Assembly (NCBI RefSeq): GCF_018350175.1
Contig: NC_058368.1
Location: 80,540,001-80,604,000, forward strand
Reading direction: 5' to 3'
Source: Felis catus
Taxonomy: Eukaryota
Length of the DNA: 64,000 bases
The position numbers were made by a program, and so were the translations under genes. Shown piece after piece: positions 20,859 through 64,000 of this stretch (positions are counted from its first letter, which is position 1; every line of letters begins with the position of its first letter). Under the pieces are notes generated by a model, which had not been told where the DNA came from, searched no databases, and saw only the letters and a list, made by a program, of their open reading frames with translations.

Positions 20859-22183
20859 TGATGTACTTCTTTATCCGCACACTTTGCTTCTAGATCACCT
20901 TCAGCCCTACACTGCACACGCTTGGTCTCCCACATGCACGTTTCACAGGCCATCCCCACCCAGCCTGCTCTCTGCCTTCCTAGGCTTTCTGCCTTCCTTG
21001 TTAACCCTTATGACCGACTGCTTTCTACTGGGTTCGTTATTCCAGCCCTCATTTCTTTAACTTTTCTTGGAACCCACATTTTACTTGGTCACCTTCATCT
21101 CTGCTCGGTTTCCCCTCCACTAGTAACTGTTCTGTGGGGAGAGAGGCTTTACACGCCTGACAAATGGGCTCACAGTCCAGGCAGAATAATAATGAAATGT
21201 AGTCCTTGGACAAGATCACAAGGCCTTGTTCCCAAGGGACATCTCCATTTCCAGTAATTTGTGGCTTCCAAAGATTAGGTTCCATAATTCATTTGATGTG
21301 CTGGTTTCCGGAGTAAATCAAAAGAACAGAAAACGAGGCCGTTAAAAATGTTTCCCTTTGGAAGTAGACTTTATATCCAAATGGATAAAGCTGTTTATAA
21401 AACAAAAAATATCATGGACGATTGATTCTACTGCCCCCATATGAGATATGGCAGGGTATAATTACATCAACAAATATTTATTTGTTGATATCTGCCTCTG
21501 TTGTTTTTAAAAAGGTACTTCCCCAACAGAATTTTTTTTTTTTAAGTTTTGAAGGGAATATAGGTAAAAAAAAAAATACAGTGGGTATTTTTAAAGAAGA
21601 AGAAAAGTGCCTCCCACTTTTAAAGCCAACGTTTATTTCAGGCTTTACTGCAGATCAACAGAGTTCTATTGCTATCTGTTATTTTATATAACGTGCAGGC
21701 AAGGGCACTGAGAATAACACTCGGCGGTATCCCCCAAGGTAAACACACATGCAGGAGAACACACATTTGTAAGAAATTTTGTTCCTGGAAGCCTTGTCTC
21801 ATGCCTTGTTATGACTTACACAAACCAAACTCACTGAAAGAGTTTACTCTTCCAATGCCTATTGCTTTTTAGAAGCAGCTTTATGTGACCCTAGAACATG
21901 TTAGGTTTGTGTATCTCCTGCTCACGCTTGCTCCTGAGCTGGCAGGGTCTAACTCCAACGCCTGCCTATGGATACACTCTGGGGAGTCTAGGAGCCTCTA
22001 GAAATCAGTGCCTCTGAGGAGGATTTTCTTAACTTCCAGCAGATTCTCAAAGGGTTTCTTAGTCCAACACTGGAAAGAACAGTGTGAAAAGCCTGCCTCA
22101 GAACTTCCTATTCATGCCCTTGCCGGAAATAAAAAAAGGCGTGGGAGTCTTTCCCAGGCAGCCCTGCTGTGGTTGTGGTAGCA

Positions 22184-23155
22184 GCCAGGTGGGGCCAGAT
22201 GGGGCCAGGTGGGGTCAGGTAAGGCCAGATGGGGCCAGGTGGGGTCAGGTAAGGCCAGATGGGGCCAGGTGGGGTCAGGTAAGGCCAGATGGGGCCAGGT
22301 GGGGTCAGGTAAGGCCAGATGGGGCCAGGTGGGGTCAGGTAAGGCCAGATGGGGCCAGGTGGGGCCAGGTAAGGCCAGGTGGGGTCAGGTAAGGCCAGAT
22401 GGGGCCAGGTGGGGTCAGGTAAGGCCAGGTGGGGCCAGGTGGGGTCAGGTAAGGCCAGATGGGGCCAGGTGGGGTCAGGTAAGGCCAGATGGGGCCAGGT
22501 GGGGTCAGGTAAGGCCAGATGGGGCCAGGTGGGGTCAGGTAAGGCCAGATGGGGCCAGGTGGGGCCAGGTAAGGCCAGATGGGGCCAGGTAAGGCCAGAT
22601 GGGGCCAGGTGGGGCCATGTAAGGCCAGATGGGGCCAGATGGGGTCAGGTAAGGCCAGATGGGGCCAGGTGAGGCCAGGTAAGGCCAGATGGGGCCAGGT
22701 GGGGCCAGATAAGGCCAGATGGGGCCAGGTGAGGCCAGGTAAGGCCAGATGGGGCCAGGTGGGGCCAGGTAAGGCCAGATGGGGCCAGGTGGGGCCAGGT
22801 AAGGCCAGGTGGGGCCAGGTGGGGTCAGGTAAGGCCAGATGGGGCCAGGTGAGGCCAGGTAAGGCCAGATGGGGCCAGGTGGGGCCATGTAAGGCCAGAT
22901 GGGGCCAGGTGGGTCAGGTAAGGCCAGATGGGGCCAGATGGGGCCAGGTGGGGTCAGGTGGGGTCAGGTAAGGCCAGATGGGGCCAGGTGGGGTCAGGTA
23001 AGGCGAGATGGGGCCAGGTGGGGCCAGGTAAGGCCAGATGGGGCCAGGTGGGGTCAGGTAAGGCCAGATGGGGCCAGGTGGGTCAGGTAAGGCCAGATGG
23101 GGCCAGGTGGGTCAGGTAAGGCCAGATGGGGCCAGGTGGGGCCAGGTGGGGCCAG
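22184..23155. repeat. G-rich 10-mer minisatellite (GGGGCCAGGT / GGGGTCAGGT / AAGGCCAGAT) with 30-bp higher-order unit
   Basis: About 970 bp of near-perfect decamers in mostly triplet order; a few 1-nt deletions near the 3' end. Confidence 0.97.
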
Positions 23156-34559: not shown

Positions 34560-36430
34560 TGGAGTCGCTCCAAGGTTTCTGGTCCTGCAGAGCGGGCCGG
34601 CCTGGCGGGTGGTGAGGTCACGCGCCGGAGCTGGCCTCCCGGCAGGGGGCACACCTGACACCCGCGCGCCACGCTGGGGGTGGGGGTGCGGGCGTCCACG
34701 TCCCCAAGGATCTCAGCAGCGCCGGGGAAATCAATTCCTCTCCGAATTAGGCCCATCTGCTCACAGATTTAATGATGATTTGTGTTCTGTAATTGCTGGC
34801 TTACAAAGTGGCGGGGAGAAGCGAACGTCTCGTTTTCAGCACCCCCCACCCCCCCACCCCCGCCCGAAATAAAACTGGCAAAAATCAAAAGAGCATTCTG
34901 GGAAGCACTTAATAGTTGCAACGCTGGTGAATTCAGAAAATCAATGACGGGCTCCGCGCCCTCTGAGGAGGGGCCGGCGCGAGGGCAGCGCCGCGCGCTC
35001 CGGCGTCCGCGGGGCGTGCGCGGGGGCCCGCGGGGCGCAAACGGTTAAGGCGGCCGGCGCCTCCGGAGGTCACGGCGGCGCAGGTGGGCGCGCACGGCCG
35101 GGCCGGGGCGGGGGCGCGCGGCGGGGCGCACGGCGGGCCCGAGCGCGGGGTGCGTGTGCGGCCGGCCGGCGCGGGGCTGCTCCAGCGCCGCGTCTTTTCT
35201 TCTCCTCGCGGTGATGTCATCGGCGGCGGCGGCTGGGAGCCGGGAGGCGGCGGCGGGGGCGGCGCCGGGCGGCCGCCGCAGGTTCATGTGCATCTAATGA
35301 AAAGGCACTTGACAGTCGGCCAGGACGCACGCGAGGGAGCGCGAGCCGGCCGGACCGCGGCGCCGCCCGAGCCAATCGCGGGGCCGGCCTCTCCATGGGC
35401 GACCCGGAGGGGGCGGGGGGCGCAGCCGGCCGGGCCGCGGCCGCTCCGAGGTGAACGGCGCCCAGACGGGCTCGCGGCGCGGGGAGGCCGGGCGCGCCGC
35501 CGCTATGAATTCCGCCGAGCAGACCGTTACGTGGCTCATCACCTTGGGCGTGCTGGAGTCGCCCAAGAAAACCATCTCGGACCCGGAGGGCTTCCTGCAG
35601 GCGTCTCTGAAGGATGGGGTGGTCCTCTGCAGGCTGCTGGAGCGCCTGCTCCCCGGGACCATCGAGAAAGTAAGTGCCGCCCCGGCCCGCGCCCCCACGG
35701 CGCACAGGCCCGGGCGGCGGGCGCCCCGCCTCGTTCCCGCCGCGGCCCGGGATGCGCGGAGACGTGCGGGCGCGGGGTCGCAGGCGCCGGCACCTGGCGG
35801 CCGCGCGGGGCGCGGAGGAGCCCACGCGCCTCCTTTGTGCGCGGACCCGGGAACGCGGCCCGCGCGGGGGGCGCGCAGGCGGCGCGAGGCCCGGGCGGCG
35901 GGAGCTGGGGGCGCCATTGTGTGCGCTGCGGCGGGGCCCGGGGTGGGGGTGTGGGGGTGGCCCGGCCGTGTCCGAGGGGACCGGCCCCGGGGAGGCCGCA
36001 GGGAAGGGGAGCGGCGGCTCCGCTCCGCCCCAAGGTGGAGTCGCCCCTGTCGGTGACCCGAGCGGAGAGCCGCGCTCCAGCGCCGCGCACAGCCTCCTCG
36101 AGGCTTTGTTTGAACAGTTTTTGTTGGTGGTATCGTAGGAGAGTTTCACCTCTGCTTAGTCGACCAATTGTTGGGCGTTTTTCAAAGGCATTGATCGATA
36201 GCCGAGGGCCGGGCTGTAAGATGACCGACTGCCCTCCCCGCCAGAGAATTCCTCGTGTCTCCAAGCCCCGAGGATGGCCGACCCCACGAAGCCAAGGCAC
36301 TCTCCGAGGCTGGCTTAAAATTATCGATTTCATTTTCGGGTCCGTGCCTGATTCTGAGCACAATCACCGGGCCCACAGACCCTGCCTGCTTCTGTGTTGG
36401 TGGCCGGTGGTTTCCCCGGGGCGGGGGTGT
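34560..36430. promoter_or_regulatory. ARHGEF7: CpG island / ARHGEF7 promoter with GC boxes, CCAAT box (35372-35376) and CRE/ATF-like TGATGTCA (35212-35219)
   Basis: Very high GC and CpG density spanning the first exon; GGGGCGGGG boxes; GCCAATC about 130 nt upstream of the ATG. Confidence 0.9.
35505..35669 (+). CDS. ARHGEF7: Rho guanine nucleotide exchange factor 7 (beta-PIX), first coding exon, N-terminal part of the calponin-homology domain (55 codons, phase-0 intron follows)
   Basis: Translates [55 protein letters not shown], recognised as the ARHGEF7 N-terminus. ATG context is GCCGCCGCTATGA. The exon ends AAA|GTAAGT (consensus donor) and lies in a CpG island. No exon 2 was recognised in the window. 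Confidence 0.96.
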
Positions 36431-48960: not shown

Positions 48961-49488
48961 CAAAATGTTAGCAAAAACAAAACAAACAACAAAACCCCCC
49001 AAACCCCCAAAATGTTAGTGAGCAAAACAAAACAAAAAAACAAAATAAAAAAACCAAAAATGTTAGTGAGCAAAAAAACAAAACAAAAAAACCAAAATGT
49101 TAGCAAAAAACAAAACAAAACAAAAAACCCAAAATGTTAGTGAGCAAAACAAAACAAAAAACAAAAAAACCCAAAATGTTAGCAAAACAAAACAAAAAAA
49201 ATAAAACAAAAAACCCCAAAATGTTAGTGAGCAAAAAACAACACAAAAACCAAAAAAAAACCCAAAAAACCCAAAATGTTAGTGAGCAAAACAAAACAAA
49301 AAACAAAAAAACCCAAAATGTTAGCAAAACAAAACAAAAAAAATAAAACAAAAAACCCCAAAATGTTAGTGAGCAAAAAACAACACAAAAACAAAACAAA
49401 AAACCCAAAATGTTAGTGAGCAAAACAAAACCAAAAATGTTAGCAAAACAAAAAACAAAAAACAAAAAAACCCAAAATGTTAGTGAGC
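48961..49488. repeat. A-rich VNTR with core AAAATGTTAG(TGAG)CAAAA, about 13 copies separated by variable (A/C)-rich spacers
   Basis: Core recurs every ~30-55 nt in two variants (with or without TGAG). Confidence 0.9.
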
Positions 49489-52169: not shown

Positions 52170-53375
52170 ATTAATAGGCTTTATTTTCTAGAGCAGTTAA
52201 GGTTTCCAGAAAACTGGGCAGAAAGTACAGAGAACCCCATACACCCCCACCCTCCCCTTTTAACATTTTGCATTAGTGTGGTATACTTGTCACAATCGAT
52301 GAACCAGCACTGATACAATAGTAACTAAAGTCAACAGTGTACATTAGGGTTCGCTTCGTTGTGCACTCCGTGGGTTTGGACAAATGTATAATGACATGTC
52401 TCCCCCATTACAGTGTCATGCAGATTGCTTTCACTGCCCTAAAAATTCTCCATCTTTTAGGGGTTGCCAACCCCAGGCAACCACGGATCTTACAGTCTCT
52501 ATAGTTTTGCCTTTTCCAGAATGCCATATAGTTGGGATCATACAGGATTGGCTTCTTTCACTTAGAAATACGCATTTAAGTTTCTCCTCCGTGTCTTTTT
52601 GTGGCTTAATCACTTCTCTTCGTCACTGAATGATTTCCCACTGTCTAGATGGACCACAGTCTATTTATGCATTCACGACTGAAGGTCATCTTGATTACTT
52701 CCAGGTTTTTGCAAAGAGATTCTTGTAGACATTTGTGTTCAAGTGTTTTCATGGACGTGTTTTTAGCTCTTGGGGAAGCACCTTCAAGAAGCAAGATTGA
52801 GGGGCACCTGGGTGGCTCAGTCAGTTAAGCATCCGACTTCGGCTCAGGTCATGATCTCACGGTCGTGAGTTCGAGCCCTGCGTCGGGCTCTGTGCTGACA
52901 GCTCAGAGCCTGGATCCTGTTCTGGATTCTGTGTCTCCCTCTGTCTCTGCCCCTTCCCTGCTCATGCCCCATCTCTCTCTTTTTGTCTTGCAAAAATAAA
53001 TAAAATGTTAAAAAAAAACCCAACAAGATTGCTAGGGGTGCCTGGATGGCTCAGTCGGTTGAGTGTCTGATTTCGGCTCAGGTCATGATCTCAGTTTGTG
53101 TGTTTGAGCCCCCGCATTGGGCTCACTGCTGTCAGTGCACAGCCCACTTTGGATCCTCTGTCTCCCTCTCTGTGTCCTTCCCCTGCTCACGTGAGCTGTC
53201 TCTGTCTCAAAAGTAAATAAACATTATATGTATATATATATATATATATATACACATACACATATACACATATATATACACATATATATGGGTATATATA
53301 TATGTGGGTGTGTATATATATATAAAAGGTATATATGTATATATATACGTATATATGTATATATATGTATATATA

Positions 53376-53428
<53 letters not shown>

Positions 53429-53820
53429 GTATATATAAAATAAGTTTGGTAAGAAACCACCAAACGTCTTCCAAAGCGGCTGTGCCCTGTTGCATTCCCA
53501 CCAGCAGTGAATAAGAATTTCTGTTGCTCCGCATCCTGATCAGCAAATGGTGTTGTCAGTGTTGGGTACTGGCCGTTCTAATAGGTGTTTAGTGGTGTCT
53601 TTTTTTAATTTGCATTTCCCTGATGACATATGATGTGGAACATCTTTTCACATGCTTACTTGCCATCTGTGTCTCTTTGGTGAGGTGTCTGTTCAGGTCT
53701 TTTGCTCATTTTTAAATTAGGTTGTCTACTTACTGTTGAGTTTTAGGAGCATTTTGTATATTTTGGGGACAAGTCCTTGATTGTATATATATTCTTTGCA
53801 AATACTTTCTTCTAGTCTTT
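52170..53820 (-). mobile_element. Old L1 3' region interrupted by two plus-strand CAN-SINEs (52801-53022, 53035-53225) and a (TA/TG)n expansion (53226-53437)
   Basis: TTTTGCCTTTTCCAGAATG.CATATAGTTGG...TTGCATTTCCCTGATGAC...GAACATCTTTTCA are L1 3'-end motifs in antisense. Confidence 0.82.
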
Positions 53821-60278: not shown

Positions 60279-60453
60279 CAATGCTATACATTTCATTAGG
60301 ACATACATTTCCAAATAAAGTTTTACTTTTACATTTGATAAATTTTCCTCAGAAACTTGAAGGTATTGTTCCCATTGTTTGCGTGCTCATAATAGTTGTG
60401 TTTAATTTAGAAGAACAATTGTAACAATTAGATCTTTACTAACCTTAAAGGTA

Positions 60454-63038
60454 GAGTTGATTCTCGTTACTTGTGGTAGTTGTGTCCTACAAAGTCACTG
60501 TGAACACTGAATTAGCAACTACTGAACCACTCTTCCTAGGGCAAATACCTGGTTAATTTCCTTCCAGATAGACATTGCAAGGTTTTGTCAACCAGTCAAC
60601 ACATAATCTTGTTTTAGTGTATTTCCACTTGGAGACGGCTTATTTAATACATGTTCCTTACAAATAATTAGTTGCATGCAGGGTTTCTTCATAGTACAAC
60701 ACAATTTCAGTTACAGCACCATGAACTGTTTACCTCTTCAGTTCAGTTGCACACGGTGCACACTCAGCAAACACATACTGTATGCTGCATAGTACGGTAA
60801 TGTAAGAAAGCCAGCCCTGAACACAGCATTATGCGAAGCTTGAACGCTTGAAATTTTGTGAAAACATTAAAACCTTACTTGTGGTGGAGCTGTGGGCTTT
60901 GTGATGGGGCAGTGGGCAGTGTGGTTAAATCTCTAGACCTTGGCTTGCCCCACAAAAACCAAGACAGAGTAGGTGTTGTACTCGGCAGAAGAGGAAGAAG
61001 TCAGTGAGGGTGACACGTGAGATCGGACAGCTCTACCTCAGGAGTTCGGCTTTCACAATGTGTTGATGGTGTCGGCAACTCTCCCTCCCAAACTGGCTTG
61101 AAAAATTCCTTCAGCCTTGTCTGCTTGGCTTTTCGCCTCAAATCTTTAAGTGTTTCTGCATAAGGGACGAATGCAGTGGAGGTGAGGCGCTTAAATGTGA
61201 GGCTCCGTTCGAGCACGGGGTCACACTCTTCCATGTCATGGAAAATTTTTTCCAGGGCAGAATTCCATTCTGCTATTTTGGCTGCCGTGAGAGGGACAAT
61301 TCTTGGACTCTTAGGCTGACCTTCATCACTGCCATCATCATCGCTGACGCCAGTGCCATGCTTTGCTATCTCATCCAGGTCTTTGTTGGTGGGTTCTACT
61401 GCCATTTCTGCCAAAATGTCCTCCACATCTCCCTCCCTCATGTCTCTGAAGCCTTCTCCACTTATTTGCTGTGCAATATGCATTATGTTTTCCACACTGT
61501 TCTTTATACTTTCTCTAACACCTTCAAAGCCTTCAAAAGTTTTCACGCAGTCTGGCCAAACATTTGCCCAACAGTTATTAATAGTAGCCTGCCTGATGCT
61601 GTCCCACGCTGTGCTGATATAATCTATAACGTTGCGTATCGTGACGGAATTCCAGTAGTCCATCATGGTGGTTTCCTCGTTGGCATCAAGAGCCTCAAAA
61701 GCCTTGCTATAAAGCTCCCTGGTGTAGTGGGCCTTGAAAGCTTTTATTATCCCCTGACTGAGGGGTTGGATGAGAGAAGCAGTGTTTGGGGGCATGAAGA
61801 GAACTTCTATGTCAGGGTGGGCATTTTCAAGTTCTTCATGGCAATGAACTGGGGCACTATCCAAAATTAGTAAAATCCTGAAGGCAAGGTTTTTGCTATG
61901 GAGGTAGCGTTCAGCTTCTGGGATGAAGCAGTTGTGGAACCAATCCCAGAATATTTCAGATGCCATCCATGCCTTTTTGTTCCACCTCCAATGGACTGGC
62001 ATACGGTTCAGATTTTTCCCTCGAAGTGCTTGAGGGTTTTGTGCTCTGTGTACCATGAGGGGTTTGCACTTAAAGTCACCCTTGGCATTGGCACATAATA
62101 GCAAGGTTGCACGGTCTTTGAATGATTTAAAGCCAGGAGCCTTGGAGGCCATTTGCATTATATAGGTTCGTCTGCCAACATTCTTGTAAAACAAGCCTGT
62201 CTCATCAGCGTTGAAAACCTGCTCTTCCATATAACCCTTTTCATGTATAATGCTTAGCAGATACTTTTTAAATTCTTCTGCAGCTTCCTCATCTGCAGGA
62301 CCTGCCTTCTGTCCAAGTTTAACGTTTTTCATGTGGTATCGCCTTTTGAAACGTGCAAGCCAGCCTGCACTAGCTGAGAAGGGTTTAACCTTTTCCTGAC
62401 CCTGGGTAACATGACTGTAAATTTCCTTGGCTTTCAGCCTCACAACAACACTGTCTACCATGCTCTTTTTATTGGTTGTCATCTCCTGAATCCACAAATT
62501 TAGCTGCTTTTCCATCTTTTCCATAGCCGCATCACGCACTATAGATGTTACTTTAGCACTTTCTGGAGCAGCCTCACGTACAGATCGGCGAATATCGTCT
62601 TCCTTTTTCTGGATGTACCGTATTGTTGATTCATTAACGTTGAACTCACGGCCAACAGCACTGTAACTCAGGCCTGAACGAAGCTTATCTAACACACGTA
62701 TTTTCTCTGTAAGGCACATCACAGCCTTCTTGCGCTTAGGAACATTAGACAGTGCTTTAGCGCTACGCTTGGGGGCCATTTAAAATAGCAAAGTCACCAA
62801 GAAGAACCACAAAAATGTGAAAAACGTGATGCCAGTAGAGAGTGAAAAGGACATCTGCTTACCTTAGGAGCTGAAGCAAGAGGGCAGAGCACAGTCTTGT
62901 TCAAGTTTAGCTGGGAATGTGTGTCATGTCTGTGAATGACTGGGAAAGTGCCACCAGTATTGATTTTGGGGTTACAAACAAATTTTATCAAGTAGGTGAA
63001 TTTGCACAGAATCCGTGAATGAATGAGGACGTGGACTG
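60454..63038 (-). mobile_element. Full-length TcMar-Tigger DNA transposon (about 2.6 kb) with degenerate TIRs; termini MER82-like
   Basis: Left end TA|GAGTTGATTCTCGTTACTTGTGG (TA at 60452-53). Right end CCGTGAATGAATGAGGACGTGGACTG|TA (TA at 63039-40); its reverse complement CAGTCCACGTCCTCATTCATTCACGG is an imperfect inverted match to the left end. TA duplication is typical of Tc1/mariner/pogo. Encloses the transposase ORF. Confidence 0.85.
61001..62779 (-). CDS. Tigger/pogo (TIGD/CENP-B-like) transposase-derived protein, 592 aa, single uninterrupted ORF, antisense within ARHGEF7 intron 1
   Basis: N-terminal psq-type HTH (LTEKIRVLDKL...VGREFNVNESTIRYI), Tc5/CENP-B-type HTH (MEKQLNLWI...FSASAGWLARFKRRY), DDE_1 domain motifs VFNADETGLFYK, AWM, LILDSAPVH and MPPNTASLIQPLSQGIIKAFK, acidic patch, C-terminal QTRLKEFF. 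Confidence 0.9.
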   Translation of the reverse strand: MAPKRSAKALSNVPKRKKAVMCLTEKIRVLDKLRSGLSYSAVGREFNVNESTIRYIQKKEDDIRRSVREAAPESAKVTSIVRDAAMEKMEKQLNLWIQEMTTNKKSMVDSVVVRLKAKEIYSHVTQGQEKVKPFSASAGWLARFKRRYHMKNVKLGQKAGPADEEAAEEFKKYLLSIIHEKGYMEEQVFNADETGLFYKNVGRRTYIMQMASKAPGFKSFKDRATLLLCANAKGDFKCKPLMVHRAQNPQALRGKNLNRMPVHWRWNKKAWMASEIFWDWFHNCFIPEAERYLHSKNLAFRILLILDSAPVHCHEELENAHPDIEVLFMPPNTASLIQPLSQGIIKAFKAHYTRELYSKAFEALDANEETTMMDYWNSVTIRNVIDYISTAWDSIRQATINNCWANVWPDCVKTFEGFEGVRESIKNSVENIMHIAQQISGEGFRDMREGDVEDILAEMAVEPTNKDLDEIAKHGTGVSDDDGSDEGQPKSPRIVPLTAAKIAEWNSALEKIFHDMEECDPVLERSLTFKRLTSTAFVPYAETLKDLRRKAKQTRLKEFFKPVWEGELPTPSTHCESRTPEVELSDLTCHPH

Positions 63039-64000
63039 TATTTGTATGGGTCTCTTGCCAAAACAAAAAAACCCAACCAAACAAAAACAGTGATCAGTAA
63101 AAATGGTTTAGTATAAAAATGTCTTACTTTAGCATACTGTTTTGTTGCAGGAAGTGGAATGGAAAGACGCTGAAGGAGAACAGAATGTAAAATGTCTGAC
63201 TTTTAAACAAGGAATTTGTTCATTAATTTTTTAAGATGGAGAATGGCTATTTCTACTGTTTTTTGAGCTACTGGACATAATTTTAAAGCATATTTAACAG
63301 TTTCAAAATGTCCTCAAGACATCAGAAATTAAAGCTTTGCAACTACTTAAAATTATTAAGCATGCATATTTGGTGCATACTTTTTCAAAATTCTTTTATG
63401 GAGAGGAGCAAATGGACCAGGAAGCAGCTTTGGTTTATCTGTTCACAGAAAAAAAAAAAAAATCCGTTCAATTTGGAGGAAATATGTTGGCAATTTCTTC
63501 TAAGGATTTTTAAATTGTAGGAAAAAAAGGGTCTGATTTTTGCCCTCTTTGTACTTCTTAACACCCTTGTTTTTCGTTTTGATTTATAACTTTAAAAGAC
63601 CCAAGCTTGAAATGAAACCAGAGTATTCCTGTAAGGCCTGATGGAATGCTGTGATATCCCCATACAAGGACAAAAGTGCCCTGAATGTCCTTAGATGCTA
63701 GAGTTCTGGATGATGCTGTAGTGTAGCTCTCAAAACTTAGTCTTCTTATGTGTCAGAACGACAAAGGGCCCTTCTCATGTCTCCGGCTTCTCTCTTGATT
63801 GCTCTCGGTTTTCTTGACTTTTCTGGTCCGGGAGGCTGTCAGTAACTCCTCACAGGTGTGGCAGGTGGCCCTCAAAGTTCTCTCTTGGCAGCCTGCACCG
63901 GGCCCTCCTCGACGCTCTCCGCCCGTGGTAGAGGCCGCAGACAACTGCTTCCTAGCTGACTTGCTCACTGATATGTAACTGGCTATTCTGGTTAATCATT

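Follow-up and report, generated by a model that had tools for sequence, protein, structure and literature searches.

A transposase-derived reading frame in the cat genome

The stretch of Felis catus DNA analysed here, a window of 64 kb (positions 80,540,001–80,604,000 of NC_058368.1, assembly GCF_018350175.1), carries on its minus strand an unbroken open reading frame (ORF) of 592 codons that derives from a pogo/Tigger-type transposase and encodes a serine in place of the third aspartate of the catalytic triad. The ORF is located within a 2.6-kb element (60454–63038) with TA at both presumed ends, and its product (protein label P0001), whose residue numbers are used throughout, contains the domains CENP-B_N, HTH_Tnp_Tc5, and DDE_1, all of them found by Pfam, as befits a member of the pogo/Tigger family. 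The first two catalytic residues, D192 and D307, are intact and encoded by GAT, and a spacer of 33 residues, which falls within the range of 29–36 given for Tigger elements between the second and third catalytic positions (PMC7386202), separates D307 from the AGT codon of S341 (Table 1). The codons are thus those described in the original prediction, which had been made from the sequence of the window, and the complete DDD triad expected of an active Tigger transposon is absent from the cat protein.

The assignment of S341 to the third catalytic position is based on an alignment of 84 rows (A2), of which 64 are homologues outside the mammalian group considered below. Position 341 is occupied in these by Asp (55), Asn (5), Glu (2), Gln (1), or Ala (1), while the nearby residues Q338 and P339 are unchanged in 64/64. 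Since the flanking residues are invariant and Asp predominates at position 341, S341 is identified as the third catalytic position. The proposed loss of the third Asp is confirmed, and along the linear sequence a scan of residues 326–354 of the cat protein found no Asp or Glu that could replace S341. The AGT codon is two changes away from GAT, as originally pointed out, to which can be added that the Asn intermediate is still present in relatives of the cat gene.

In the AlphaFold model of the cat protein (mean predicted local distance difference test score, pLDDT, 78; predicted template modelling score 0.57), D192 falls in the first strand, D307 just past a later one, and S341 within a short helix. 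The best fold match of the modelled catalytic domain is SETMAR (3k9j, Z 13.7, root-mean-square deviation 2.8, 183 aligned residues), and the Mos1 catalytic domain is a further top match (Z 13.3, deviation of about 3 Å over about 183 residues). Moreover, the N-terminal part of the model resembles the DNA-binding domain of CENP-B (1hlv, E 1.8e-21).

Table 1. Features of the ORF, of the surrounding element, and of the neighbouring exon (window coordinates)
Feature	Position	Strand	Basis
Pogo/Tigger-type transposase-derived ORF, 592 aa, clade A gene	61001..62779	-	ORF call and orthologue tree
CENP-B_N helix-turn-helix (HTH) 1, residues 15–66	62582..62737	-	Pfam PF04218 E 3.4e-8; CENP-B 1hlv match
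HTH_Tnp_Tc5 helix-turn-helix 2, residues 87–153	62321..62521	-	Pfam PF03221 E 1e-12
DDE_1 / RNase H-like domain, residues ~185–404	61568..62227	-	Pfam PF03184 E 3.5e-46 (residues 221–404); SETMAR/Mos1 fold match
D192 (GAT, FNADETG), catalytic Asp 1	62204..62206	-	Codon read and homologue alignment
D307 (GAT, LILDSA), catalytic Asp 2	61859..61861	-	Codon read and homologue alignment
S341 (AGT, QPLSQG), third catalytic position	61757..61759	-	Codon read and homologue alignment
C-terminal two-helix hairpin, residues 496–540, predicted homodimer interface	61160..61294	-	Structure prediction
Probable decayed 5' terminal inverted repeat, outer TA	63009..63040	-	16/31 alignment columns match 3' end; boundary presumed
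Probable decayed 3' terminal inverted repeat, outer TA	60452..60482	-	Alignment to 5' end
First coding exon of host gene, calponin-homology start	35506..35670	+	Pfam CH E 2.7e-6; GT donor; CpG island

Two mammalian clades and the loss of the third aspartate

A protein search returned 119 matches, to which named members were added through cluster look-ups; neither of the main alignments took in 35 of the 119 matches or most of the short cluster members. The cat protein shares 99% identity with a protein of Prionailurus viverrinus, and identity amounts to 91.9% with the polar bear and 89.7% with the horse. The name 'TIGD1-like' that the databases give is an automatic label. The relatives form two mammalian clades, A and B, each with a support of 100/99 and with a branching order as in the species tree. 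Orthologues with intact ORFs and a tree that follows host phylogeny are what is found in domesticated genes. Clade A, which holds the cat ORF, includes felids, bears, seals, canids, equids, camels, whale-clustered proteins, colugos, and a group sister to the colugos. Clade B, to which the cat paralogue XP_044901792 belongs, is marked by a deletion of four residues near 276–279, and its full-length members are 77–81% identical to the cat clade A protein. An armadillo protein (P0011, XP_004451066) with an intact DD33D triad branches basally with a support of 87/84. Its placement in either clade was considered and rejected, since it has no clearly derived mark of A or B at 14 diagnostic sites; the gene may be a basal orthologue or the product of a third domestication.

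Of the 19 near-full-length proteins of clade A, 12 have Ser at the third catalytic position, 7 have Asn, and none has Asp. This set omits the truncated clade A proteins; a further nine, named or clustered and mostly truncated, have Ser (7) or Asn (2). Serine is found in the named records of Prionailurus viverrinus, three bears, three seals, three equids, dog, raccoon dog, and two camels, and Asn in the whale-clustered, colugo, and further clade A proteins. In clade B, counted over 38 proteins of at least 550 residues, the triad is DDD in 32, DDH in 3, and NDD, DAH, and DND in one each. Protein P0025, which is frameshifted at the site, was kept out of the triad counts, and many of the rows counted are close relatives and, thus, not independent. 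Asp is also found at the third position of the armadillo protein and of two fragments in which the marks of A and B are absent or nearly so. Given that the armadillo protein, 32/38 clade B proteins, and these fragments carry it, Asp is taken as the ancestral state.

The occurrence of D, N, or S in orthologues, suggested in the original prediction as a means of dating the loss, would place it before the split of colugos and laurasiatherians, as clade A has Ser or Asn and never Asp. Most likely, Asn replaced Asp on the clade A stem, before that split, and was itself later replaced by Ser. On the sequences at hand, a single change from Asn to Ser with a reversal in whales and two separate changes would be equally parsimonious. 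Each of the other replacements at this site (N, H, or Y) alters the first base of the Asp codon, and the codon preceding S341 in the cat ends in C. The recurrent loss of the third Asp could thus plausibly be due to a mutable CpG, provided that the ancestral codon stood in the same context.

That the Ser codon might be a sequencing or assembly error, a possibility contemplated in the original prediction, deserves practically no credence. Ser occurs at position 341 in the named records of cats, bears, seals, canids, equids, and camels, which refutes such an error. Moreover, all sampled words of 60900–63100 are contained in 20 of the 24 sequencing runs listed (10 studies), a match that concerns the segment rather than codon 341 in particular.

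Several further members of the family deserve mention. A sister group formed by P0023, P0202, P0203, P0026, and P0272 shows 47–57% identity, a DD33E triad, and an altered first motif, and possibly consists of further copies of the same lineage retained in other animals. The clade A proteins P0136 and P0132 carry clade B residues in their N-terminal stretch, up to about residue 40–56, and the first 56 residues of P0136 match a whale clade B protein; the two may be either assembly chimeras formed through the near-identical first HTH or products of gene conversion between A and B. A human fragment of 265 residues (P0275, XP_047290975), nearest to clade B, has Asn at the third position, which suggests that the clade B gene is broken in humans. 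Fused longer forms were represented by three distant invertebrate matches and by no mammalian one among 7110 candidates, which is weak evidence.

Constraint, predicted dimer, and genomic setting

The conservation of the clade A gene was compared with neutral decay. In simulations of the ORF evolving neutrally, the identity between cat and horse (89.7%) is reached at a distance of only 0.05. At a distance of 0.25, which we take to be the neutral distance between the two species, identity falls to 60%, with 13 stops and 0/300 stop-free pairs, and the outcome is similar with a CpG boost. The constraint ratio would be roughly 0.2, near those of TIGD6, JRK, and CENPBD1, although this figure is a proxy, not a ratio of nonsynonymous to synonymous rates, and leans on the assumed distance. 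Independently of this distance, the ratio of observed to expected CpG dinucleotides is 1.07 at codon positions 1-2, and only 0.22 at positions 2-3, 0.33 at positions 3-1, and 0.29 in the non-coding parts of the element (Fisher p 0.0016). CpG kept at positions 1-2 and depleted elsewhere points to purifying selection, of which the clade A gene thus appears to bear signs. The invariant positions within clade A amount to 34/46 in the first HTH, 48/67 in the second, 144/220 in the DDE domain, and 43/60 in the hairpin. Conservation of the DDE domain is thus similar to that of the other folded parts, and the domain seems to be still constrained despite lacking the third Asp. A scan of metagenomes for orthologous DNA yielded one weak locus from 17 pattern matches.

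Residues 410–560 are predicted to form a homodimer, with a score of 0.71 against 0.01 for the best of three controls. The mark used to call a dimer was passed in microbes by 21/30 solved homodimers and 0/23 single chains, and in eukaryotes by 17/29 homodimers (7/16 in animals) and 0/30 single chains. At least 25% of the contacts agree between runs, with a pLDDT of 56–60. The predicted interface is the C-terminal hairpin, which is preceded by a low-confidence acidic stretch (residues 474–494) and in which 19/24 contact positions are invariant across A, B, and the armadillo protein, compared with 6/21 of the others. This prediction supports dimerisation at the level of a model, and such a hairpin, not covered by Pfam, is apparently common to these Tigger proteins. 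No Pfam match to CENP-B_dimeris was found, and residues 490–560 had no significant sequence match in the PDB; an atlas search with residues 410–560 retrieved TIGD1-like clusters only, with no shared Pfam family. As for DNA binding, the eight proteins displayed from A, B, and the armadillo do not differ in either putative recognition helix, which suggests that these proteins may have had a common ancestral DNA target.

Well-matched terminal inverted repeats (TIRs), expected of an active Tigger element, are absent around the ORF. The two probable ends agree in no more than 16 of 31 alignment columns, and this pair is not among the 25 longest inverted repeats of the window. No second copy and no match to a miniature inverted-repeat transposable element (MITE) was found in the 64 kb, the only hit being the element itself. 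As regards the family label, Tigger4/Zombi was considered and dropped as doubtful, and a MER82-like affiliation would be likelier. The ORF is located about 25 kb downstream of, and on the opposite strand to, an exon that encodes the start of a calponin-homology domain, in a CpG island (35001–36000; GC 0.80, observed/expected CpG 1.09). We assume that this exon belongs to ARHGEF7 and only presume that the element is located in an intron of this gene.

Regarding a possible transcript, a strong-looking candidate splice acceptor is found on the minus strand at 63170, some 130 bases before the element begins; its 5' part contains a closely spaced candidate acceptor/donor pair (62871/62862, minus strand). 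ATTAAA (60648) and AATAAA (60019) downstream of the stop are likewise candidates for transcript structure only. An in-frame upstream ATG opens a frame of 24 codons (62780–62854, minus strand) whose TAA abuts the ATG of the ORF; in place of this arrangement of upstream frame and stop in the cat, the horse and armadillo annotations show N-terminal extensions. Elsewhere in the window, long tandem arrays with repetitive stop-free frames occupy 51–488 and 22111–23100, and the segment 22001–23000 has an observed/expected CpG ratio of 0.02 though its GC content is 64%. The presumed intron also contains an A-rich tandem array (48970–49469) and a long TA repeat (53225–53437).

Probable function and alternative explanations

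The loss of the third Asp is in itself ordinary, since it is shared by several domesticated pogo genes, namely TIGD2 (DD34S), TIGD7 (DD34N), TIGD6 (DD30N), and CENPBD1 (DD32G) (Gao et al. 2020, PMC7386202), as well as by SETMAR, and the original prediction was right in regarding domesticated members as often lacking one residue of the triad. TIGD4 and TIGD1 are given as DD30K and DD32D, respectively (Dupeyron et al. 2020, PMC7325037). Like the cat protein, TIGD2, TIGD6, TIGD7, and CENPBD1 combine CENP-B_N, HTH_Tnp_Tc5, and DDE_1, retain the whole transposase without its third Asp, and show a similar constraint, the Ka/Ks ratios of domesticated pogo genes being 0.06–0.21 (PMC7386202). CENPBD1 resembles the cat gene also in its patchy, Laurasiatheria-centred range (PMC7386202). 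However, the cat gene stems from another transposon lineage than these four, and its spacer is of 33 residues. SETMAR (Metnase) likewise contains a single intact transposase copy that has lost the third Asp, and provides the best fold match of the catalytic domain, but it is a mariner derivative, fused to a SET domain and primate-specific, while the cat gene is of pogo origin and, on the weak evidence of the search for fused forms, has no fusion partner. CENP-B shares with the cat protein two HTH domains, a DDE remnant, an acidic stretch, and a C-terminal helical element, which in CENP-B is a dimerisation domain (PMC4231638) and in the cat protein a predicted dimer; unlike the cat protein, it derives from pogoR, and the cat C-terminus has no sequence likeness to its dimerisation domain. 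The clade B paralogue has the same recognition helices and a nearly identical hairpin interface, and differs in its four-residue deletion and in its triad, which in most members is DD33D and in the others shows sporadic changes to H, N, and other residues.

The available data are best explained, with a probability of about 0.72, by a domesticated, non-transposing, dimeric DNA-binding Tigger protein akin to the transposase part of SETMAR or to CENP-B, a description that fits the conserved DNA-binding helices, the signs of purifying selection, and the predicted homodimer. One DD33D Tigger copy would have been inserted before the colugo/laurasiatherian split, and the ends of the element would have decayed while the ORF was retained. 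The third Asp would then have changed to Asn on the stem lineage of the gene and to Ser in carnivores, equids, and camels. In the RNase H-like fold, the lack of the third carboxylate would cripple the second metal site and abolish transposition. The protein, if expressed, would dimerise through its C-terminal helical hairpin and bind DNA with its two CENP-B-like HTH domains, the probable target being the inverted repeats left by its own transposon family, and the DDE domain would act as a scaffold. The model for such a role is SETMAR, whose dimers occupy about 5000 TIR sites (PMC4036204, PMC9062482).

Several observations weigh against this explanation. Truncations or frameshifts affect the clade A gene in dog, otter, otariids, elephant seal, camels, and other records, and the branch leading to the raccoon dog (0.12) has about three times the length of those of bear or seal; judged from these sequences, the gene is dispensable in many lineages. 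The invariance of D192 and D307 was considered as a sign of special constraint and rejected, since 19/24 acidic residues of the DDE domain and 144/220 of its positions are invariant too, and it is uninformative on catalysis. With respect to the dimer, only 1/7 eukaryotic cases without an older solved relative passed the mark, the prediction may merely reproduce a fold already solved, for instance that of the CENP-B dimerisation domain, and buried residues would be conserved with or without a dimer.

The breakage of the gene raises the possibility that it was once domesticated and is now decaying, in which case the felid copy would be intact by inertia and S341 would be one tolerated change in a gene without function today. 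Repeated truncation in other carnivores, camels, and other lineages and the 17 positions at which the cat protein departs from residues agreed on by at least 80% of the outgroups speak for it. However, felids, ursids, two phocids, equids, and the colugo have an intact gene, the branches of cat, bear, seal, and horse are short compared with the long canid branch, and the CpG pattern follows codon position, so that decay appears rather improbable. Somewhat more weight, while still unlikely, can be given to a domesticated and non-transposing protein that is a weak or altered nuclease, in which D192 and D307 might hold one metal and Asn or Ser at position 341 might support nicking or single-strand work. 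In its favour, D192 and D307 are present in 19/19 near-full-length clade A proteins with only N or S at position 341, the DDE domain is as conserved between cat and horse as the DNA-binding domains (206/220 and 109/119), and the nearest folds are the catalytic domains of SETMAR and Mos1. SETMAR also offers a precedent, since with its DDN triad it has lost transposition and some cleavage has been reported, and restoring the third Asp did not restore transposition (PMC4036204). POGZ is likewise unable to transpose although its triad is intact (PMC9976928), so that neither transposition nor cleavage can be predicted from the triad alone. The proposal of a non-cutting, DNA-binding or dimerising factor in the original prediction is thus upheld in that the protein is very probably no active transposase, has intact DNA-binding helices, and has a predicted dimerisation hairpin, whereas 'non-cutting' goes further than the SETMAR precedent permits. 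An active or recently active transposase, with another acidic residue standing in for S341, would account for the retention of all domains and of two Asp residues, but it is highly implausible given the lack of acidic residues at 326–354, the decayed ends, the vertical inheritance across clade A, and the absence of a second copy or MITE from the window.

If the gene is a domesticated DNA-binding protein as preferred here, the novelty probably lies in the gene itself, an uncatalogued mammalian domesticated pogo gene. In the supplementary tree of Dupeyron et al. (PMC7325037), clade 53 ('Tigger 1') has among its leaves the clade A proteins of bear, horse, donkey, and colugo, together with the armadillo protein and proteins of clade B. 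They are treated there as transposases, only TIGD1–7 being discussed as domesticated in the accessible text. Gao et al. set 'TIGD1-like' sequences aside as pseudogene-like (PMC7386202), and eight supplementary files of that study contain neither the motifs of the cat protein nor three clade A accessions. The supplement of PMC9219625 gave 0 matches for six motifs. In the literature searched, which did not extend to most subscription journals, bioRxiv supplements, or image supplements, the gene is undescribed and present only as supplementary-tree leaves.

The residue loss marks what is probably a real gene, whose active site would have decayed in two datable steps, from Asp to Asn and then to Ser. 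Together with its sister gene B, which mostly kept Asp, it constitutes a natural experiment that bears on two possible causes of the loss, namely selection against the third Asp after domestication and the mutability of its codon. A more speculative and rather unlikely extension is that the same Tigger family was domesticated two or three times in placentals (A, B, and the armadillo gene) and that the products act together, an idea drawn from the shared recognition helices, the near-identical dimer interface, and the lack of the third Asp in A as opposed to the mostly DDD triads of B. If true, A and B could heterodimerise on the inverted repeats that the family left behind, A being the partner with blunted catalysis or acting as a brake. 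The two would then represent a pair of transcription factors of transposon origin, so far unrecognised, in carnivores, horses, and whales, overlooked by work centred on human and mouse.

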